Positions 18,585 through 50,855 of a stretch of 64,000 nucleotides of DNA are shown piece by piece (position 1 is the stretch's first letter; each line of letters opens with the position of its first letter). The position numbers were made by a program, and so were the translations under genes. The DNA is taken from the NCBI GenBank assembly GCA_942492815.1, contig OW818658.1, positions 5,208,125-5,272,124 on the forward strand, read 5' to 3'. The DNA is from Candidatus Hydrogenedentales bacterium (lineage in GTDB: Bacteria > Hydrogenedentota > Hydrogenedentia > Hydrogenedentales > JAEUWI01). The notes under the pieces were generated by a model that worked only from the letters and a program-made list of their open reading frames with translations, did no database searches and was not told the origin of the DNA.

Positions 18585-18989
18585 AGTTCGAAGCGGAGCT
18601 TCGGGTACTGCATTTCCAAGCGGAGCTCTTGACATTATCCATAAATTCTTTTGGATAGGAGACTATTTTATTAGTCCCGAAGGGACGGCATATCGTAGCC
18701 CAGGGTGGAGCGAGGCACGAGCGAAACCCTGGGTATTGTTGCAATAAGATCACTAGCCCCAGCGGGGCGGCATAGGAGAACGAGGGAAATCGTCCCCGGT
18801 CTTCTATGCCATCCCTTCGGGATTTAAGAGTGTTTGGGCCAGTTGACCCAGGGTTCCGCTCGTACCTCGCTTCACCCTGGGCTACGATATGCCGCCACTG
18901 CGTGGCTAATTGGACAACTTTATGTAAACCGTTTCAGTGTAATAGCTGTAAATTTATGGGTAATGACAAAAGCGAAGCCTGGGAACGAG
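18585..18989. repeat. Family-1 palindromic structured repeat element (~400 bp), copy A, in the gyrB-gyrA intergenic region
   Basis: Left module TAGTCCCGAAGGGACGGCA...GTAGCCCAGGGTGGAGCGAGGCACGAGCGAAACCCTGGG and its inverted counterpart on the right arm; related copies at 24621-25001, 27928-28258 and 28354-28689. Confidence 0.75.
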
Positions 18990-19010
18990 CGGGTTTCCAG
19001 TTCTCCTCGC

Positions 19011-24620: not shown

Positions 24621-25001
24621 CTCGTTCCCAAGCTCCGCTCTTGTCATTACCCACAAGTTTCGCGAGATAGGTGTCTATTGCTTTAGTCCCGAAGGGACGT
24701 CATATCGTAGCCCAGGGTGGAGCGAGGTACGAGCGAAACCCTGGGTATTATGGAAAAAATTCATTAGCCCCAGCGGGGCGGCATAGAAGAACCGGCAATC
24801 CATCCCTGGTTTTCTGTGTCATCCCTTCTGGATTCAATGTTTTTGGGGTCCGGTGACCCGGGGTTCCGCTCCTACCTCGCTGTACCCTGGGCTACGATAT
24901 GCCGCCACTACGTGGCTAATCAGATGCATTTCTGTGATCTGTTGCAGTGTCCTATGCTTAAGAACATATGGGCAATGACAAGAGCTCCGCTTGGGAACGA
25001 G
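24621..25001. repeat. Family-1 palindromic structured repeat element, copy B
   Basis: Terminal arms CTCGTTCCCAAGCTCCGCTCTTGTCATTACCC / GGGCAATGACAAGAGCTCCGCTTGGGAACGAG are inverted repeats; internal modules near-identical to copy A. Confidence 0.75.
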
Positions 25002-25030
25002 TGAAGGAGGATATTGTGGGCCCAGGGCAA

Positions 25031-27612: not shown

Positions 27613-27887
27613 CGATCCCGATACCCCTTTCCATAAATTGGCTGCGGCGTAGTATCCGGGACCCCGTCGGAAAGAATCAACAAGGTGCCGCCCAACAGGG
27701 GCTCAGGCATTCCTGCCTGAGACTGGGCTCACCCAGACATGGAAAGGCCCGGCGAGTATGTAAGGCGATCTGGGATCACAACGTCGTGTTCTCGAATGCC
27801 GAGACTTGCGCACACGCCCACAGGCCTGTCGAATGGCAACGTGAGCGCTGTCTCAGACAGGAATGTCTAAGCCCCTTGGGACCGCAC

Positions 27888-27927
27888 CCCGCGCCACGAT
27901 GCGACGTTGTTCCGCGAGGGGTGGGAG
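27888..27927 (-). pseudogene. Truncated silent copy of the hsdS 3' conserved region (cassette fragment 1)
   Basis: Minus-strand reading GTTLPPLAEQRRIVAR, then diverges into a GACAGGAATGTC hairpin motif and stops. Confidence 0.65.
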
Positions 27928-28258
27928 GGTGGTACCTCGAAGGGCCGGAAGGCGTTAGCCACGAAGTGGCGGCAGTTTGTAGCCTGGGGTGGAGCGAGGC
28001 ACGAGCGCAACCCCAGGATCACCAAACAAACACATCGAATCCGCGAAGCGGATGCCAGATTGCGATAACCCCGCTCTGCCATCCGCCGCAGGCGGATTCA
28101 ACCAGTGGGGGATTCGGACCTGGGGCTGAAGCCCCAGGCTAATGACTGATGTCCACTTCGTGGACTAAGAAAACGCTCGGAGAACACCGTCCCCTGTGCC
28201 GTCTTTCCCATATTCCTGGTTCACTCGTTCCCAATTCGTAATTCATAATTCATAATTC
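27928..28258. repeat. Family-1-like structured repeat element, tandem unit 1 downstream of hsdS
   Basis: Contains TAGCCACGAAGTGGCGGCA hairpin, CCTGGGGTGGAGCGAGGCACGAGCGCAACCCCAGG hairpin and mirrored GTCCACTTCGTGGAC / CCTGGGGCTGAAGCCCCAGG hairpins. Confidence 0.7.
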
Positions 28259-28353
28259 TCAATTCGTCAGTTCACTGACGCCCGCCTCCAACTGGCCCAC
28301 CAGCCCCATCAGCTCCTCCACCCGCGCCACGATGCGACGTTGTTCCGCCAGGA
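28259..28353 (-). pseudogene. In-frame silent copy of the hsdS 3' conserved-region cassette (fragment 2)
   Basis: Minus-strand translation AVRGTTFPLLAEQRRIVARVEELMGLVGQLEAGVSELTN-stop; differs from the hsdS C-terminus by a 15-codon in-frame deletion and a few substitutions. Confidence 0.7.
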
Positions 28354-28689
28354 GCGGAAAAGTGGTACCTCGAACGGCCGGAAGGCGTTAGCCACGAAGT
28401 GGCGGCAGTTTGTAGCCTGGGGTGGAGCGAGGCACGAGCGCAACCCCAGGATCACCAAACAAACACATCGAATCCGCGAAGCGGATGGCAGGTCACGAAG
28501 ACCATGCTCTGCCATCCGCTTCGCGGATTCAAAGAGTGGGGCATTCGGACCTGGGGCTGAAGCCCCAGGCTAATGACTGATGTCCACTTCGTGGACTAAG
28601 AAAACGCTCGGAGAACACCTCCCCCTGTACCGTTTTCCCCATATTCCTGGTTCACTCACACCCAATTCGTAATTCATAGTTCATAATTC
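28354..28689. repeat. Family-1-like structured repeat element, tandem unit 2 directly abutting the hsdS stop
   Basis: Near-identical to 27928-28258; includes a 22-bp perfect inverted repeat GAATCCGCGAAGCGGATGGCAG / CTGCCATCCGCTTCGCGGATTC. Confidence 0.7.
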
Positions 28690-30264
28690 TCAATTCGTCA
28701 GCGCGCTGACGCCCGCTTCCAGCAGCGCCACCGCCGTCCGGCGCGACGTCGCGATCTGCGCCTCCAACTGGTCCACTAGCCCCATCAACTCCTCCACCCG
28801 CGCCACGATGCGGCGTTGTTCCGCGAGGGGTGGGAGAGGAAATTGAATTGAACAAATAGTTTTCATGTTCAAAAATGGCTGGACTGCCTCGGATGCAATC
28901 CCACGAAGATACTCGGCTATAGCATTCAAGTAGATGCACAAATACTGGGCCGTAACCACCTCACCTACGCGAAATCTGCACAAACCCGTTGTGGAGAGCA
29001 TCCCCTCCGGCATCGACTCCGGATAGATGGCACAGAGTCCAATGCTTCCGACTTTACCTAAGAGTACATCGTTCGGCAATACGTTGTGCCGCCTCAGCAA
29101 CGCGAACTTTTCCTCTCGAATGTATCGAAGGTCGTTGGGATTAAACCTAAACGGCTTAACATTCACCATTCGAATCACGGGGACACCCGTCTCTATGTAA
29201 TCCGTCTTTATGTTTATAGATTGACCGAAGGGCCCGTCGACAATCGCTGACTCTGAAGCATTCCCTATCTCGCCAATTCTGCACCACGTCCAGGATTCTG
29301 GAAGCGGATGGTTGTGCCCACTCAGGCTAGAATCAGCCAGTGCTCTTGGTTTACGCATCTCCCCTGATTTAATCGCGATTTGTTTAGCGCTTTCCACCCT
29401 CGCGAGGAGCTCCTCCGCCCCTTCATCTGCCGGGTCCTGGGGCACGAGCTTTCCCCGAACGGCGAGGGTGAGGATGGACTTGCGGAGGTCGGCGGGGTCG
29501 ATGGGGCAGGCCGGGTGAAAGAGGAGCTTGAGGTTTTCCGGGGTCGGGTCCTCGTTGAACCGGGACACGCTGGCGCGGGCGAGATCGGCGTGCCGCGCGT
29601 CCCGTTCCCGCTGCTGCGCCTCCAGCCGGTCACACAGGGCCATCAAGGCATCCACCTTCGCCACAATCCGCTTCTGCTCCGCGAGCGGCGGGAGGGGAAT
29701 CTCGAATCGCTCAATCATCCCTTTTGTCAGCGCCTGCCGGGTTGCTCCAACTTGTACATCATCGATCATCACTTGAATCGCCGGACTGGCCAGAAACTTC
29801 GCAAGGAACACCGGGTCCAGATCGGGTGTGGGACGTATTATAGTCACGTGCTGGTTCACCCGCGCGCCCACCATCTCCACTGGCGCCGTCGTGACTCGGC
29901 CAATCGACGCACCTGTGATATTGAGGAGAACGTCATCCGCCTGCACGATCACATTCGAGAGCTTATCTGCTTGTTCGCTCGTCAAGAACACAAGGCCGAG
30001 AGGTTCGAAACCGCGAAAGTGAACGTTCATCGAACGAATGAGCGGAATCCCTTGAGTCACGTAAGAGACCCGGCCTCCCGACGGTGTTGCACCACTGCCG
30101 ATCTTGGAAGCCAACGACTTGAGAGTCACCAAAGGCCAGGGCTCGCCAACCGGCAACAGTTTTCCCGAGAAGGCAAGGTGAAGCACCAGTTCCCGCATCT
30201 TGTCCACAGCCCTGGGCGCGTCGGCGAACAGCTCAAAGTTCTCAAAAAAAGTGTCGAGGTTCAT
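28690..30264 (-). CDS. hsdS: Type I restriction-modification specificity subunit HsdS (two target-recognition domains)
   Basis: Central and C-terminal conserved repeats LPPLAEQKRIVAKVDALM... and LPPLAEQRRIVARVEELM...; ATG at 30264 preferred (ORF track start 30297). Confidence 0.9.
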   Translation of the reverse strand: MNLDTFFENFELFADAPRAVDKMRELVLHLAFSGKLLPVGEPWPLVTLKSLASKIGSGATPSGGRVSYVTQGIPLIRSMNVHFRGFEPLGLVFLTSEQADKLSNVIVQADDVLLNITGASIGRVTTAPVEMVGARVNQHVTIIRPTPDLDPVFLAKFLASPAIQVMIDDVQVGATRQALTKGMIERFEIPLPPLAEQKRIVAKVDALMALCDRLEAQQRERDARHADLARASVSRFNEDPTPENLKLLFHPACPIDPADLRKSILTLAVRGKLVPQDPADEGAEELLARVESAKQIAIKSGEMRKPRALADSSLSGHNHPLPESWTWCRIGEIGNASESAIVDGPFGQSINIKTDYIETGVPVIRMVNVKPFRFNPNDLRYIREEKFALLRRHNVLPNDVLLGKVGSIGLCAIYPESMPEGMLSTTGLCRFRVGEVVTAQYLCIYLNAIAEYLRGIASEAVQPFLNMKTICSIQFPLPPLAEQRRIVARVEELMGLVDQLEAQIATSRRTAVALLEAGVSALTN

Positions 30265-30676
30265 TGTACCCCCAGGGACTGACGCGCGCAGGCGCACTTG
30301 TCGCGAGCGGCACAGACCAGGCGGTCAATCGGCGATGGTGAAAGCGGCAGGCACGCCCATGCGCGTGGCTGTCCCGTCGTGAGGGAGATGCACGCGATAC
30401 TCAAAGACAGGCCCGGTCCGCGACACGCCCCCTGAATACGGGCGTCGCGCGTGCGTCGAGGGCGCTCGGGCCACGACGGGACAGCCACGGACGTTGAAAT
30501 ACCTGTTGCTCGTAAACGACCCCCGTCAATCCATGGTGCCTTTGCTACCGGAATACACCGGTCCGCGTCAGTCCCTGTGAGACTGCCCTTCACACCATCG
30601 CAGGCCCCTCGCAGGCAAGTCGCATCGGCGACTGACGCGACGCCACGGGCACGGGAAAGCCAACCGGAGCGGCCAG

Positions 30677-30865
30677 ACAAAGGAGCTTGGACATTCCTGT
30701 CCGAGACAAAGCCTGCGTTACAAATTGACAGGCCCGCTGGCATGTGCGAAACCTCCGCTATCAAAAATCGGGACTTTGGCACGCCTGGCTTTACAGACAA
30801 CTTCACAGGGCCCTTCGGTGTTGGCGCAGGCGCTGTCTCGGACAGGAATGTCCAAGCTCCTTTGT
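30677..30865. mobile_element. MITE-like element, 189 bp with 32-bp perfect terminal inverted repeats
   Basis: ACAAAGGAGCTTGGACATTCCTGTCCGAGACA at 30677-30708 and exact reverse complement at 30834-30865; related solo motif at 27845-27872; no ORF inside. Confidence 0.65.
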
Positions 30866-30913
30866 ACCGCGTATCGAAGCTGCGCGTAATACTCCCCGAA
30901 AACGAGTAGCCTC

Positions 30914-32350
30914 TCATCGCGTCAGCGCCTCCATCAATTGCGCCTTCAATGCTTCCCGGGTCTCGGCGATCTGCGCCAGGAGCTTTTCGTATTCCGGCAG
31001 GAGTTCGTCCACGTTGCCGGGGCCGGTGTCGGTGCTGTGGGGGTTCTTCAGGTCGAGGTTGTAGTTGCCCGCCTGGATGGCCGCCACGGAGACGCGCCAG
31101 GCCTGCTCGTTTTCCACGCGCTTCTTCCACCACTTTTTCTCGGGCGCGAATTCCTCAATGCGGATGGGCTTGGTCTTGTTGTAGCTCTTGGCGCCGGGGG
31201 GATAGGGGTGCTCGTAGTACCAGACCTCCTTCGTGGGCTTGCCCGCGTCGAAAAAGAGCAGATTGGTGCGGATGCCGGTGTAGGGGCTGAAGACGCCGTT
31301 GGGCAGGCGCACGATCGTGTGGAGGTTGAACTCGGTCAGGAGCCGCTCCTTGATGCGGGTCTTCACGCCTTCGCCGAAGAGGGTGCCGTCGGGCAACACG
31401 AGCCCCGCGCGGCCGCCAGGCTTGAGCAGCTTCATCAGCAGCACGAGGAAGAGATCGGCTGTTTCTCGCGTGCGGAATTCCGTCGGGAAGTTGGCCTCGA
31501 TCCCGTCTTCCTCCATGCCGCCGAAGGGCGGGTTGGTGACGATGACGTCCACGCGCTCGGTGGCCTTCCAGTCGCGCAGTGGCCGGGCGAGGGTGTTGTC
31601 GTGGCGCACGTTGGCGGGCACGTCGATGCCGTGGAGCATGAGGTTGGTCATGCAGAGGACATGGGGCAGGTGCTTCTTCTCGATGCCGTGGAAGCAGTCC
31701 TGGATCGCGCGCTCGTCGGCCTCGGTTTTGGCCTGCTTGCGCAGGTGCTCGATGGCGCAGGTGAGGAAGCCGCCGGTGCCGCAGGCGGGATCGAGGAGGG
31801 TCTCTCCGAGGCGCGGGTTGACCTGCTCCACGATGAACTGGGTGACGGCCCGGGGCGTGTAGAACTCGCCCGCGTTGCCCGCGGACTGGAGGTCTTTCAG
31901 AATGCGCTCGTAGATGTCGCCGAACATATGGCGGTCGTCGGAGGCGTTGAAATCGATGCCATTGATCTTGTTGATCACCTGGCGCATGAGGGTGCCGTTT
32001 TTCATGTAGTTGTTGGCGTCTTCAAAGCTCATGCGGATGAGCCCGGCAATCTTGTCCTGGCCGCCGGTGAGGGCCTTGAGCTTGGGCAGGAGCGTGTTGT
32101 TCACAAAATCGAGGAGGGCCTCGCCCGTGATGCCTTCCTCGTCCTTCGCCCAGTGGCTCCAGCGCAGGTGCGGGGGCAGGGGCGACTTGTAGTGGTCGCG
32201 GATGAGTTCGAGTTCCTGCTCGCGGTCATCGAATATTTTCAGGAAGAACATCCAACCGAGCTGCTCCAGGCGCTGGGCGTCGCCATAGGTGCCGGCGTCC
32301 TTGCGCATGATGTCCTGGATGGATTTTACGATATTGGAAACGTTGGACAT
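30914..32350 (-). CDS. hsdM: Type I restriction-modification DNA methyltransferase subunit HsdM
   Basis: N6-adenine methyltransferase motifs (TNPPFG, LDPACGTGGFL); 478 aa. Confidence 0.95.
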   Translation of the reverse strand: MSNVSNIVKSIQDIMRKDAGTYGDAQRLEQLGWMFFLKIFDDREQELELIRDHYKSPLPPHLRWSHWAKDEEGITGEALLDFVNNTLLPKLKALTGGQDKIAGLIRMSFEDANNYMKNGTLMRQVINKINGIDFNASDDRHMFGDIYERILKDLQSAGNAGEFYTPRAVTQFIVEQVNPRLGETLLDPACGTGGFLTCAIEHLRKQAKTEADERAIQDCFHGIEKKHLPHVLCMTNLMLHGIDVPANVRHDNTLARPLRDWKATERVDVIVTNPPFGGMEEDGIEANFPTEFRTRETADLFLVLLMKLLKPGGRAGLVLPDGTLFGEGVKTRIKERLLTEFNLHTIVRLPNGVFSPYTGIRTNLLFFDAGKPTKEVWYYEHPYPPGAKSYNKTKPIRIEEFAPEKKWWKKRVENEQAWRVSVAAIQAGNYNLDLKNPHSTDTGPGNVDELLPEYEKLLAQIAETREALKAQLMEALTR

Positions 32351-32493: not shown

Positions 32494-34860
32494 TTACGCC
32501 ACCCTCCGGTACAGCTCGGCTTCGAGGGCCTGGATCGCCTCCAGGTACTGTTCCTTGCCGCCGAAGAGTTTCACGATCTCCGTGACGGTGCCGAATTGGG
32601 TCAGCGGAGCCACTTTCAATATTTCCAGGGACTCCACGCTCTGGATGCCGCCGTCGGCGAACTTGTCCAGCAGCGCGTCGAGCACGGCGCGCACCTCCGC
32701 GCCGTATTTCGCGAAGACGTGGCGCTTGCGCACGTTCTCCGCGCGCTCGCGCCGGGTGAGGGGCGGCTCGTCGAAGGCCACGTGGCAAATGAGGTCGAAG
32801 GCGTCGTAGTCGCGGCCCACCTGCTCGGCGAGTTCGTCCAGGAAGACGCCCTTGCCCGCGAGCTCTTCGAGGATGGCCTGCTTCCGCTCGGCATCGCTCC
32901 AAACGGTGAGAAATTCCGTCAGCGTGGCGAAGGACTTTTGCACGGTGCGGCGGCTGTAGTCGCGGAGGGATTCGGTGATGAGCTTGCCGTCGGCGTCGAG
33001 GTATTGCACGCGCTCGGTGACGATCTTTACTTCCACGTTGTCCACGTAGTACTTCTTCGGCCGTCCGCTGTCGCCCTCACCGTCGAGGGGCCAGGGCTCA
33101 CCGTCAATGTACACCTCGCCCTCTTCCTGAGCGTTCGTCGAACTTTCGTCCGGCGGCACCACGGAATCGTCGGGCCCGGGTACATAGATCTGCACCGGAT
33201 CGCCGTCGAAATCCGGATCGGCGAAGAGGGCCGTGGCGCGCTTGAAATCCATGATAGTGAAATAGAGCTTGCCGTAGTCCTCGCGGATGCGGGTGCCGCG
33301 ACCGATGATCTGCTTGAACTCGGTCATGGAGGCGATGCGCTTGTCGAGGACAATGAGGTGGCAGGTCTGGGCGTCAACGCCGGTGGACATGAGCTGGGAG
33401 GTGGTGGCGATGACCGGATAGTCCCGGCTGGGATCGATGAAATTGTCGAGCTGGGCCTTGCCCTCGGGGCTGTCGCCGGTGATGCGCATGACGTATTTGT
33501 CGTTGGCGGCGGCGAGGTCGGGGTTGGCGTTGACCAGGGCCTGGCGCATCCGCTCGGCGTGATCGATGTCGTCGCAGAAGACTATCGTCTTGGCGAAGCG
33601 GTTGGTGGCGTAGAGGAACTCGGTGATTTTCGCGGCCACGAGGGCGGTGCGCTTTTCGAGGACGAGGTTGCGATCAAAGTCGAGGATATTGTACTCGCGA
33701 TCTTCGATTTCGTGGCCGTATTTGTCGGTCTGGCCGCGCTCGGGCCGCCAGCCGTCGAGGTCTTTGTCGATGCCGACGCGGACCACCTTGTAGGGCGCGA
33801 GGAAGCCGTCGGCGATGCCTTGCTTGAGGGAGTAGGTGTAAATGGGTTCGCCGAAGTACTCGATGTTCGACACGTCGCGCGTTTCTTTGGGCGTTGCGGT
33901 GAGGCCGATCTGGGTGGCGGAGCTGAAGTACTCCAGGATCTGCCGCCAGTTGGCGTCGTCGGCCGCGCTGCCGCGATGGCACTCGTCGATCACGATGAGA
34001 TCGAAGAAGTCGGGCGAAAACTGTTTGTAGATGTTCTGATCTTCCTCGGTGCCGCTGACGGCCTGGTAGAGGGCGAGGTAGATCTCGAAGGCCTTGTCCG
34101 CCGTGCGGTTCGTGATCTTGGTCATGGCCTTGCCGAAGGGCTTGAAGTCGTTGCTCTTGGTCTGGTCGGCGAGGATGTTGCGATCGACGAGAAAGAGGAT
34201 GCGTCTGCGCGCCCCGGCCTTCCACAGCCGCCAGATGATCTGGAAGGCGGTGTAGGTCTTGCCAGTGCCGGTGGCCATAACGAGGAGGATGCGCTTCTCG
34301 CCGCGCGCGATGGCGTCCACGGTGCGGTTGATGGCGACGAGCTGGTAGTAGCGCGGGGCGCGGTCGGAGCCGTCGTCGTAGTAATCCTGGGTGGTCACGG
34401 CTTCCTGCGCGTCGGTGTAGCCTTTGGCCTGGCGATAGCGGGCCCAGAGTTCTTCGGGCGTGGGGAATTGATCGAGGGGGATCTCGCGCTCGACTGTGCC
34501 TCCGGTGCCAGTGCGGTCGTGCTCCAGAAAGGTGTCGCCGTTGGAGCTGTAAGCAAAGGGCACGTCGAGGATCTCGGCATACTCGAGCGCCTGCTGCATG
34601 CCCGCGCCCACAGCGTGGTTATTGTCCTTGGCCTCGACGACGGCAATGGGCATGTTGGGCTTGTAGAAAAGGAGGTAATCGGCTTTTTTCGCCTCGCCCC
34701 GCGACACGGACTTGCCCCGGACGATCACGCGCCCCTTGGTGAAGTGATACTCTTCGAGCATCTGGGTCATCACGTCCCACTTCGATCCGCCGGGTCCGAG
34801 GATCGCCGGCGTGATGAACTTGGTGCGGATGTCGGTCTCTGTCAGTGCCTTTTTGTCCAC
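32494..34860 (-). CDS. hsdR: Type I restriction enzyme endonuclease/helicase subunit HsdR
   Basis: 788 aa; N-terminal nuclease region, SF2 helicase motifs (ATGTGKT Walker A, DECHR); canonical HsdR N-terminus. Confidence 0.95.
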
Positions 34861-34953: not shown

Positions 34954-35967
34954 CTATTTCGCCTTTTCCTCGATCCGCTTTGCTTCCCGCTCCAGTTCAG
35001 CCATTTCGTCGCTGGCGGCCTCTTCATCCAGTCTTCGCCGGTTGAACTTTTCGTACTCCCCTTCCGCGCGGGATTTTGCGAGGTCTGCGCTGATGGTGCC
35101 CGCGTTCTCCAGAACTTCCCGCCCGTTGAACTGGAGGAAGGCATTGAGCTTCCCCTCCCAATCGGCCATGTGCATGGGCTGCTTTCGCTCCGCCTGGTCT
35201 TCGGCGTAGTCGAGGTACATCGTTACGATTCGGTTGAGTCCACGCACTTCCTCCTCGGTGAGGTAGTTTTTCGCGATGGCCACGTCGCCCTTCCGAACTT
35301 TTGCGCCTTTCCAGGTGGTCAGGCCCATGTTGGGCTGGGTGGCGTCCACGCGTTCCACGATCAGCTCGGCAGCCGTGTGGCCGTGGGTCGCCCAGTGAAG
35401 TTTGTTCTGCACTGCCTTGAAGAAATGTCGGGCCTGTTCGGAGTTGGGTTCATAGTCCACAGCGAGGGCGTAGATATCCTGAATCTTCCGGTAGAAGCGT
35501 TTCTCCGAAGCGCGGATATCACGGATCCGCTCCAGGAGTTCGTCATAGTAGTCCGCGCCGAGATTGCGGCCCTCCTTGAGCCGCTCGTCGTCCATGGCGA
35601 AGCCCTTGACGAGGTATTCCCGGAGCCGCTCCGTGGCCCAGCGACGAAACTGGGTGCCCCGGTGGGAGCGAACGCGATATCCGACGGCGATGATCACGTC
35701 GAGGTTGTAGTGTTTGATTGCCCGCTGGACTTCCCGCGCGCCCTCGGATTGAACTGTCAAGTATTCCTTGACAGTTGCCCCTTCGTCGAGTTCGCCTTCC
35801 TCGTAAATATTTCGAATATGGAGACTTATGTTCTGCTTGCTGCTATGAAACAAGTCTACCAATTGCGCCTGGCTGAGCCAGACGGTCTCGTCTTCCAAGC
35901 GCACGTCGATGCGCGTCTTCCCGCCCTCGGGCTGGTATATGAGGATTTCCGATTGTGGTTCCGGCAT
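34954..35967 (-). CDS. rhuM: RhuM family protein (uncharacterised, frequently linked to Type I R-M loci)
   Basis: N-terminal region ...IYQPEGGKTRIDVRLEDETVWLSQAQLVDLFHSSKQNISLHIRNIYEEGEL typical of RhuM; directly upstream of hsdR on the same strand. Confidence 0.8.
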   Translation of the reverse strand: MPEPQSEILIYQPEGGKTRIDVRLEDETVWLSQAQLVDLFHSSKQNISLHIRNIYEEGELDEGATVKEYLTVQSEGAREVQRAIKHYNLDVIIAVGYRVRSHRGTQFRRWATERLREYLVKGFAMDDERLKEGRNLGADYYDELLERIRDIRASEKRFYRKIQDIYALAVDYEPNSEQARHFFKAVQNKLHWATHGHTAAELIVERVDATQPNMGLTTWKGAKVRKGDVAIAKNYLTEEEVRGLNRIVTMYLDYAEDQAERKQPMHMADWEGKLNAFLQFNGREVLENAGTISADLAKSRAEGEYEKFNRRRLDEEAASDEMAELEREAKRIEEKAK

Positions 35968-50331: not shown

Positions 50332-50336
50332 TCTGA

Positions 50337-50855
50337 GGGGACGTACCGCCGCAAATAAACCCCGTAAAGGGCACACCGCCCTACGCCCTATGAGTCCATT
50401 CAACCGAGGGACGTTCACGCCAACGCGGCGGCATGTCCCTGGGGATGCTGGAATCACGACGCGGAATAAATCCAGGGCGCTCCATTACATCCGCCGGGAC
50501 GGGCACGCGCGCTGCCAGGAGCATCGCAAATAACAGTCATAGGAATGCGTGGAGTGACCCGCGCCCACACAAGTCGCGGGCGCGAGTCCGTCCCAGGGGA
50601 CGTACCGCCGACAATATTCCCCGTGAAGGGCACACCACCCTGCGCGCTCTGGATCCATTCAACCGAGGAACGTTCACACCAAGGCGGCATGTCCCTGGGG
50701 ATACTGGAATCGTGACGCGGAATAATCCAAGACCCTCCATTACGTCCACCGGGACGGGCACGCGCGTTGCCGGGAGCGTCGCACATAACCGTCATAGGAA
50801 TGTGCGGAGTGACCCGCGCCCGCGCCCGCAGCCGTCGCGGGCGCGAGTCCGTCCC
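50337..50855. repeat. Family-2 structured repeat, two tandem units (~258 + 261 bp)
   Basis: Units about 85% identical; each has a 5' GGGGACGTACCGCC box, a central GGCGGCATGTCCCTGGGGAT(G/A)CTGGAATC(A/G)TGACGCGG box and a 3' GGGACGGGCACGCGCG...CGCGGGCGCGAGTCCGTCCC box. Confidence 0.8.

Follow-up and report, generated by a model that had tools for sequence, protein, structure and literature searches.

Gene content and layout of the locus

The window, by which we mean the whole 64-kb stretch of DNA that was analysed, contains an EcoAI-like hsdR-hsdM-hsdS operon. Its expressed specificity gene ends next to a series of partial copies of its own 3' end. The gene product is a genuine HsdS by Pfam assignment (Methylase_S, E = 6e-23), and an NCBI genome encodes the identical protein (P0001). 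Downstream of hsdS lies an array in which 2.1 units follow one another as direct repeats every 431-433 bp. A unit consists, in order, of the C-terminal conserved region of hsdS (CR2), a 92-nt spacer, a 210-nt palindromic element (element X), and a further 27 nt. The features are as follows.

30677-30870: second copy of element Y, between hsdM and hsdS
28690-30264, minus strand: hsdS, 524 amino acids plus stop
28840-29412, minus strand: TRD2 (second target-recognition domain) of hsdS, of foreign composition (GC 0.49, GC3 0.55)
28693-28839, minus strand: CR2 of hsdS (PLPPLAEQRRIVARVEELMGLVDQLEAQIATSRRTAVALLEAGVSALTN), opening repeat unit 1; located by tblastn
28598-28689, minus strand: unit 1 spacer, after the stop codon, beginning with three AT-rich GAATTAT repeats
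28390-28597: proximal element X, with a short arm at 28550-28597 (plus), a central hairpin at about 28454-28546 and a long arm at 28390-28450 (minus)
28363-28389, minus strand: 27-nt stretch from element X to cassette 2, as protein a poor fit to the usual TRD end
28259-28362, minus strand: cassette 2, a copy of CR2 that lacks 45 nt in frame and retains the stop (FPLLAEQRRIVARVEELMGLVGQLEAGVSELTN, then stop)
28167-28258, minus strand: unit 2 spacer
27957-28166: distal element X, with a short arm at 28119-28166 (plus), a degenerate central hairpin and a long arm at 27957-28017 (minus)
27928-27956, minus strand: 27-nt stretch of unit 2
27888-27927, minus strand: cassette 3, the first 40 nt of CR2, ending at element Y
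27695-27887: element Y, a ~190-bp palindromic repeat adjoining the array and cutting it short

The initial annotation had described the hsdS 3' end as recurring twice downstream at a ~431-bp period, and repeat finding and BLASTN agree on this. Tandem Repeats Finder returned a single array at 27888-28721 (period 433, 1.9 copies, 91% matches), and a repeat search gave direct repeat pairs of 210 nt and 199 nt at offsets of 431 and 433 nt. The inverted repeat pairs found in the repeat search belong to elements X and Y, and none to hsdS. Units 1 and 2 align by BLASTN with E = 8e-166 at an identity of about 91-92%; they differ at thirty-five positions and by two indels (45 nt and 2 nt), and their central hairpins are not equally well formed.

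Homology to hsdS begins at 28836-28838, within the PLPP codons at the start of the C-terminal conserved region, which places it at the TRD/conserved-region boundary, as had been claimed. Nucleotide homology to unrelated hsdS alleles begins at 28835/6, the same place as the 5' limit of the cassettes. The junction between the 27-nt stretch and the cassette is identical in units 2 and 3. The hairpin-rich stretch reported before each cassette was also recovered; it measures 327-331 bp (earlier given as ~335) and is far more strongly folded than shuffled sequence. The proximal copy forms a rod-like fold of -156.7 kcal/mol (z = -8.0), and the distal copy has z = -3.6.

Partial copies of the hsdS 3' end

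Cassette 2 can be translated in frame to ...AVRGTTFPLLAEQRRIVARVEELMGLVGQLEAGVSELTN and a stop codon. Outside its deletion it is 88.1% identical to CR2, with four amino-acid changes. The reading frame, the stop and the 15-codon deletion are thus as first described, but the copy ends at 28362 and not at 28353. The missing 45 nt (15 codons) are flanked by GGAGGCG and GGAAGCG microhomologies. They encode QIATSRRTAVALLEA, a segment that has a counterpart in the C-termini of the family (e.g. QLAASRATAEKLMEA). Cassette 3 is truncated, as noted previously: its 40 nt read LPPLAEQRRIVAR and match hsdS at 97.5% identity (BLASTN, E = 3e-13), with divergence past that point. In a tblastn search of the 64-kb window, the only segments resembling conserved regions were CR1, CR2 and two fragments of CR2; all four are on the minus strand. 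The cassette peptide had no Methylase_S match in Pfam, and no second TRD was found. Moreover, none of the forty-six ORFs, which comprise every predicted gene of the window, was identified through Pfam as an integrase, recombinase, transposase or reverse transcriptase.

These results speak against the proposal in the initial annotation that the copies are silent cassettes diversifying HsdS: they contain no TRD, the segments are in direct orientation, and the predicted genes of the window include no recombinase. As the copies hold only the conserved C-terminal helix and no TRD, exchange with the gene cannot create a new specificity. Deletion or conversion mediated by RecA between 92%-identical repeats of 433 bp is physically possible, with the outcome that the C-terminus is only shortened or damaged, and deletion would be irreversible. 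A diversity-generating retroelement was rejected as well, there being no reverse transcriptase among the window's genes and no adenine specificity in the mismatches (two to three of the twelve cassette differences involve adenine in either copy).

We compared the rate of change across the parts of the unit. Between units, identity is 88.1% for the cassette, 90.5% for the stop codon plus spacer, and 86% for the central hairpin. Since the identity of the cassette is close to that of the non-coding spacer, the cassette behaves like unconstrained DNA. The arms of element X, in contrast, are 100% identical between the proximal and distal copies: none of their 115 nt has changed, versus 35 of 316 nt elsewhere (Fisher P = 1.4e-5). 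Unchanged arms amid drift elsewhere indicate that the arms are constrained.

This pattern bears on two functional readings. In one, the cassettes act as RecA-dependent conversion or deletion partners of hsdS in the manner of pilE/pilS, and a C-terminal helix shorter by 15 residues toggles restriction-modification activity or subunit assembly. Cassette 2 has kept its frame and stop, its deletion is a multiple of three, repeats of 433 bp at 91-92% identity are adequate RecA substrates, and the 97.5% match of cassette 3 to hsdS could reflect conversion. We nevertheless find this reading very improbable: it offers no new specificity without a TRD, the cassette has diverged like non-coding DNA, an in-frame deletion arises by chance one time in three, and the lost segment is one that the family conserves. 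In addition, deletion between direct repeats is irreversible, a divergence of ~9% between units argues against frequent homogenising exchange, and three other loci of the family have no comparable layout. In the other reading, the array is a homologous-recombination device that swaps the full-length for the 15-residue-shorter helix, by conversion or through a 433-bp CR2-X circle that excises and reintegrates, with the Acido-Lenti-1 doublet (described below) as a hotspot of recombination or replication stalling. If true, it would mean recombinase-independent switching of a Type I system, either on/off or with altered assembly, and we regard it as a highly improbable account.

Element X and the Acido-Lenti-1 motif

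Element X is an inverted doublet of Acido-Lenti-1 (RF01687) motifs in opposed orientation. The two short arms (28119-28166 and 28550-28597) score 40.3 bits and the two long arms (27957-28017 and 28390-28450) score 38.2 bits, all four above the Rfam gathering score of 37 bits. The long version of the motif has a conserved insertion of 17-19 nt in its first loop. The same inverted-doublet design is present at about 18615-18990 and 24627-25002, and the 64 kb contain four doublets. At permissive thresholds, no further Rfam family was matched in this array or in four related ones, and a terminator scan inside the array gave no convincing match.

In ten of the thirteen pairs, both partners vary among the 103 distinct Acido-Lenti-1 modules, and pairing is kept in 90.9% of cells; only the stems are informative here, because the loop is fixed by the search pattern. 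None of 500 shuffles reached the covariation score, and slid controls paired at 53% or less. The two hairpins of Acido-Lenti-1 are supported by these compensatory changes. In related loci, 173 of 184 modules lie outside predicted genes, and with respect to flanking genes the motif is found in sense orientation twenty-two times and in antisense twenty-nine times, which shows no bias. This lack of orientation bias, together with its use as inverted arms, argues for a repeat-element module over a free-standing sRNA. In Hydrogenedentota-type contigs, related modules occur as interspersed repeats between genes and are often arranged in tandem. A search for empty sites of the motif was confounded by flanks that are themselves repeated in the metagenome organism.

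Tandem arrays in related loci

Tandem arrays of units bearing Acido-Lenti-1 recur in seven other loci (unit length, copies):

L116: 177 bp, 3.9
L114: 291 bp, 2.9
L059: 207 bp, 4.0
L115: 326 bp, 2.0
L009: 220 bp, 2.0
L002: 327 bp, 2.0
L015: 89 bp, 2.5

Four other arrays had readable neighbouring ORFs; these arrays start past the stop codons and have no gene ends inside. Across 122 related loci, the only part of the unit that we found was the ~60-nt Acido-Lenti-1 motif, and a scan of the metagenome collection yielded no locus joining the motif to an EQRRIV-coding segment. The window itself holds a second intergenic tandem duplication, at 50336-50821.

These surveys also bear on whether the whole unit (CR2 fragment, stop, spacer, element X and 27 nt) could be a non-autonomous mobile unit that inserts into hsdS 3' ends and restores the gene end, using either an att-like core of 40 nt or the excision and reintegration of a circle by homologous recombination, and that is present here twice in tandem. 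Islands that target tRNA genes likewise restore the gene end on integration. The succession of gene end, element, gene-end repeat, element and short repeat is a classic att signature, the limit of the repeat coincides with the limit of homology among hsdS alleles, and the element arms are constrained. We consider such a unit unlikely, however. The flanking repeats are present, but the window has no integrase or recombinase, the scan of the metagenome collection gave no second instance of the motif with the EQRRIV-coding segment, and the 122 related loci share only the 60-nt motif. The displaced remainder of the original CR2, expected past the last att copy, is absent, and the four other readable arrays carry no gene ends. 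On these grounds we set aside an element that integrates into a target gene and rebuilds its 3' end.

Origin of the array

We favour the view that the array is an inert, decaying tandem duplication promoted by a REPIN/MITE-like element and not a functional store of cassettes, with a probability of roughly two in three. A relic of element-mediated tandem duplication had been the second possibility raised in the initial annotation, and it fits the spacer-like drift of the cassette, the microhomology-flanked deletion, the truncated third copy and the arrays in seven other loci.

Under this duplication account, a segment of ~480 bp, taking in the last 147 nt of hsdS and running from the start of CR2 through the stop, spacer, element X and 27 nt, would have been duplicated head to tail. 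This may have happened by unequal crossing-over between CR2 and a CR2-like remnant already downstream, or the rod-shaped hairpin may have provoked slippage or template switching, after which the segment was duplicated once more; both the mechanism and the order of events are proposed from the present layout. The first copy is still joined to the gene, and therefore hsdS is intact and the extra copies are free to decay. Copy 2 would then have lost 45 nt between the microhomologies and gained four amino-acid changes, and copy 3 would have been trimmed to 40 nt at the edge of element Y. As a point against this account, an array of 2.1 units needs either a prior 40-nt flanking repeat or the loss of a third unit, and neither is directly visible.

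The 5' limit of the cassettes counts against the duplication account, as a random breakpoint would hit the TRD/conserved-region boundary in only a few percent of cases. That homology starts there may be due to turnover of the adjacent TRD, and the coincidence could have arisen through later replacement of TRD2 or from an older hsdS remnant downstream. The composition of the gene is relevant here. GC3 is 0.65 in TRD1 and 0.55 in TRD2, compared with 0.86-0.89 in the conserved regions of hsdS (0.86 in CR2, which adjoins TRD2) and 0.82-0.89 in neighbouring genes. A similar TRD1 is present in 114 of 119 members of the HsdS family and a similar TRD2 in only five. In GCA_041443065.1 (a MAG, on a 7,016-bp contig), the same recF-dciA locus encodes an HsdM 98% identical and an HsdR 96% identical to those of the window, along with an HsdS of 516 amino acids that is absent from the close HsdS matches. 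The composition of the TRDs and the unlike HsdS in this same-locus relative point to TRD turnover at the locus. We also tried the idea that an older TRD2 ended in the 27 nt. Their translation, RGTT before LPPL, is a poor fit to the hydrophobic-Pro pattern usual at TRD ends and agrees with the family only at position -1, which leaves the idea weak.

A mis-assembled or over-expanded repeat was considered too. Repeat-rich intergenic DNA is error-prone, and the GCA_041443065.1 contig stops 249 bp past the hsdS stop, which, given a shared layout, would be within element X. Artefactual expansions yield identical copies, though, and the units here are separated by thirty-five differences and indels; the source contig, at 7.93 Mb, suggests a long-read assembly. 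We find an assembly artefact scarcely credible.

With hsdS intact and the extra gene ends adding no specificity, we would not class the locus as a phase-variable Type I system, and its significance for the restriction system is small.

Comparison with known systems

Phase-variable Type I loci that invert (SpnD39III/ivr, S. suis SsuCC20p and the 'epigenetic invertons') carry whole or half hsdS' genes with distinct TRDs, and their inverted repeats lie before and between the TRDs; a recombinase encoded at the locus is usual but not universal (PMC7394358, PMC7672463). The present locus is similar in having extra hsdS-derived DNA beside an expressed hsdS and repeats that coincide with conserved regions. 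It differs in that the extra DNA consists of conserved-region fragments only, all directly oriented and none with a TRD, and in that no recombinase is found among the predicted genes of the window. Three HsdS/HsdR relatives from different organisms (L123-L125) have only the two normal conserved regions each and no comparable layout.

Unequal recombination in conserved-region repeats of hsdS is known to alter the protein in EcoR124I/EcoR124II and EcoDXXI, where repeats of four residues in the central region shift the target spacer by 1 bp. Here the change is a loss of 15 residues in the C-terminal region, in a silent copy only. Like the pilS copies that accompany pilE in Neisseria, the cassettes are promoterless 3' partial copies near an expressed gene, but pilS copies carry variable information and the cassettes hold only a conserved segment.

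Element X itself invites comparison with REP-type repeats, including BIME clusters. It shares with REP, REPIN and BIME clusters an inverted pair of short structured repeats that forms one long hairpin (PMC3116915 and PMC3337134 for REPINs), a bias to gene 3' ends and a tendency to form local tandem arrays, and like them it is probably extragenic and multi-copy. Its arms of 50-64 nt and doublet of ~210 nt are longer than those of REPs and REPINs (roughly 20-40 nt and ~100 nt), and unlike theirs the arms are Acido-Lenti-1 motifs. No RAYT gene is present among the window's genes, and tblastn with an E. coli RAYT query of approximate sequence found no match in ~1 Mb of loci.

Weinberg et al. (2010, PMC2864571) reported Acido-Lenti-1 from Acidobacteria and Lentisphaerae and presented it as a candidate sRNA whose function was unknown. 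Here, by contrast, it supplies the arms of palindromic repeats interspersed in what is probably a Hydrogenedentota genome. The motif, which has had no known function since 2010, behaves as a conserved arm of REPIN/MITE-like palindromes: its arms are identical while nearby DNA drifts by ~11%, and the units that host it repeatedly form tandem arrays. This suggests that Acido-Lenti-1 may be a repeat-element module promoting local duplication and not a free-standing sRNA gene. A 35-nt pattern of the motif had six matches in genome contigs, all of them in Hydrogenedentota MAGs.

A tandem array at the 3′ end of a Type I operon

The array overlaps the 3′ terminus of a Type I restriction-modification operon, all four genes of which are clear in Pfam. 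The operon is flanked by recF-dciA on one side and by lipid-synthesis genes, then gyrB-gyrA, on the other.

Genes of the operon (Pfam)
34954-35967, minus strand, rhuM-like gene
32494-34860, minus strand, hsdR
30914-32350, minus strand, hsdM
28690-30264, minus strand, hsdS

The direct-repeat array of hsdS 3′ ends described in the initial annotation is real. Tandem Repeats Finder reports one array at 27888-28721 (period 433, 1.9 copies, 91% matches), and a repeat search of the window gave two long direct pairs at 431 and 433 nt spacing. Similarity is far above chance both between units (E = 8e-166) and for a 40-nt terminal fragment (E = 3e-13). With 35 differing positions and two indels between the units, an assembly artefact is an unlikely source of the array.

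Repeat units (hsdS sense)
28838-28363, unit 1: CR2 (the C-terminal conserved region of HsdS) with stop codon, 92-nt spacer, element X of roughly 210 nt, 27 nt
28362-27928, unit 2: parts as unit 1, CR2 copy lacking 45 nt in frame, reading FPLLAEQRRIVARVEELMGLVGQLEAGVSELTN and then stop
27927-27888, unit 3: 40 nt only, reading LPPLAEQRRIVAR

The 45-nt deletion in the CR2 copy (cassette) of unit 2 is flanked by the near-repeats GGAGGCG and GGAAGCG, and the fifteen lost residues correspond to a segment found in family members' C-termini. Units 2 and 3 share an identical junction between the 27 nt and the cassette. The array ends 0-2 nt from the terminus of a second palindromic repeat, element Y; the rest of CR2 was looked for beyond Y and not found.

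Copies of element Y (palindrome of about 190 bp)
27695-27887, abuts and truncates the array
30677-30870, in the hsdM-hsdS spacer

Y terminates in 41-nt inverted repeats that are 95% complementary, and no copy was found in the 125 loci compared. The hsdM-hsdS spacer that holds the second copy is unusually long (650 bp) and contains a further palindrome (about 30273-30601). The corresponding gap is about 640 bp in a Type I locus of the same family from a Hydrogenedentes MAG (JACRLJ010000052.1, L125:13855-16151), where gene calling splits hsdS into ORFs of 305 and 244 aa.

The cassettes as a proposed store of HsdS variants

The proposal that the cassettes serve to diversify HsdS is not supported. 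Known switching Type I loci carry several hsdS copies whose target-recognition domains (TRDs) differ, along with inverted repeats and, in most cases, a recombinase (PMC7394358; PMC7672463), whereas the copies here hold the conserved C-terminal helix only, and one has lost a segment present in the family. The four segments resembling conserved regions in the 64 kb are all on the same strand, and no recombinase, integrase, transposase, or reverse transcriptase was found among the predicted genes of the window. A diversity-generating retroelement was rejected: the spectrum of mismatches does not fit one, and the predicted window genes include no reverse transcriptase.

Between units 1 and 2, identity is 88.1% in the cassette, 90.5% in the stop plus spacer, and 86% in the central hairpin of X. 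The cassette value is close to that of the spacer, so the cassette drifts like non-coding DNA. In contrast, both Acido-Lenti-1 arms of X show no change in 115 nt (100% identity, vs. 35 changes in 316 nt elsewhere; p = 1.4e-5), and thus are kept constant by selection or concerted evolution. A RecA-driven switch of the HsdS C-terminal helix could use direct repeats of this kind, but no new specificity would come of it, a switch by deletion could not be undone, and the units, at roughly 9% divergence, speak against it; we consider it highly improbable.

Element X and its relatives

In each X, two Acido-Lenti-1 (RF01687) motifs face opposite ways across a central hairpin; they score 40.3 and 38.2 bits in Rfam (gathering score 37). 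As a single strand X folds into one long rod (proximal copy -156.7 kcal/mol, z = -8.0; distal copy z = -3.6). The window also holds two doublets of a different subfamily, roughly 78-85% alike, with outer inverted ends, a central hairpin, motifs of up to 50.5 bits, and no hsdS fragment nearby.

Other palindromic doublets with opposed Acido-Lenti-1 motifs (about 375 bp each)
about 18615-18990, gyrB-gyrA spacer
about 24627-25002, between a response-regulator gene and plsC

Across 185,579 species genomes, a 35-nt X pattern matched only Candidatus Hydrogenedentota MAGs, which makes that phylum the probable source of the window. Scanning metagenomes for the conserved loop gave 116 loci, many with copies below the Rfam gathering score. 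All that these loci have in common with the window is a motif of roughly 60 nt; the spacer, central hairpin, 27 nt, and cassette were found nowhere else in the related loci compared. Among 103 distinct modules, compensatory changes keep both hairpins, with ten of thirteen pairs varying on both sides and a covariation score reached by none of 500 shuffles. Modules are intergenic in 173 of 184 cases, show no orientation bias relative to neighbouring genes (22 sense, 29 antisense), and prefer convergent to divergent spacers (37 vs. 11).

In the most abundant metagenome organism, the motif sits within a non-coding interspersed repeat of 260-430 bp. Across loci L007-L122 this repeat has a sharp boundary on one side, and one subfamily has 94 copies in about 0.9 Mb. 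Its units also repeatedly form tandem arrays of two to four units at 90-98% identity.

Examples of metagenome tandem arrays
L116:9447-10136
L114:5172-6011
L059:7204-8015

By these properties, the modules appear to behave as a REP/REPIN- or MITE-like repeat, not as a free-standing sRNA gene. X has the inverted doublet of a REPIN and may belong to a REPIN-RAYT system. No transposase, RAYT-type or other, was found among the window genes, and tblastn with an E. coli RAYT gave no hit in about 1 Mb of loci.

The TRD2/CR2 boundary

As the initial annotation had noted, homology between the cassettes and hsdS starts at the boundary between a TRD and a conserved region, which the analysis places between TRD2 and CR2 at 28836-28838. 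Nucleotide homology to unrelated hsdS alleles starts at 28835/6, matching the cassette limit. Breakpoints placed at random would seldom hit this point.

GC3 is 0.55 in TRD2 and 0.65 in TRD1, compared with 0.89 in CR1 (the other conserved region), 0.86 in CR2, and 0.82-0.89 in neighbouring genes. Relatives differ between the two TRDs: TRD1 is common to 114 of 119 homologues at about 79% identity, TRD2 to only five at 64-69%. This compositional mosaic reads as a signature of TRD exchange. A MAG from a close relative (GCA_041443065.1; 7,016-bp contig, gene table) encodes HsdM and HsdR that are 98% and 96% identical at the same recF-dciA locus, and its 516-aa HsdS is not among the close HsdS matches. 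From the low TRD GC3, the differing TRD relatives, and this 516-aa HsdS, we infer that TRD turnover is the most economical account of the coincidence: replacement of TRD2, or of sequence upstream of an old remnant, after the repeat formed would leave homology ending at the boundary. The 27-nt stretch that precedes the cassettes fits this account poorly: its translation agrees with a typical TRD end at a single position.

The same coincidence leaves a small probability that the unit is mobile, inserting by homology or at an att-like site. Against such an integrative unit, the window has no integrase, the metagenome scan yielded no second instance, and the displaced original gene end was not found.

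The order in GCA_041443065.1 is recF′-dciA-hsdR-hsdM-hsdS, lacking the rhuM-like gene and with an hsdM-hsdS gap of 304 bp against 650 bp in the window. Its contig stops 249 bp past the hsdS stop, inside X if the layout is shared. Six close HsdS homologues (P0013, P0018, P0026, P0059, P0096, P0101) are 711-742 aa long, about 200 residues above the usual 500-550, which suggests an added domain or third TRD.

Origin of the array

The feature is real but ordinary, most probably a tandem duplication in decay that took a gene end with it. The relic of a tandem duplication offered as the other reading in the initial annotation fits the cassette drift, the 45-nt deletion, the truncated unit 3, and the similar arrays elsewhere. 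Motif-bearing units form true tandem arrays at seven other loci (periods 89-327 bp, two to four copies), and at 50336-50821 the window has another intergenic tandem duplication (255 bp x 1.9, 86% matches); together these indicate that local amplification is common around such hairpin-rich repeats. In the four of the seven arrays with readable neighbouring ORFs, the array begins past the neighbouring stop codon, and the window array is unusual only in extending 147 nt into hsdS.

Since units 2 and 3 share the junction of 27 nt and cassette, it arose once and was then amplified. An array of 2.1 units implies one of two histories. A CR2-like remnant may already have lain downstream, and unequal crossing-over with CR2 would then have duplicated the interval; or a third unit may have been present and afterwards truncated. 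The array end at Y, with the CR2 remainder absent beyond it, points to a deletion or rearrangement at Y that cut the array.

The 50336-50821 duplication lies between convergent deoxyhypusine synthase and xylose-isomerase-like genes and is free of Acido-Lenti-1 motifs. A by-product worth having is the evidence that Acido-Lenti-1 motifs serve as arms, under constraint, in a family of repeat elements.
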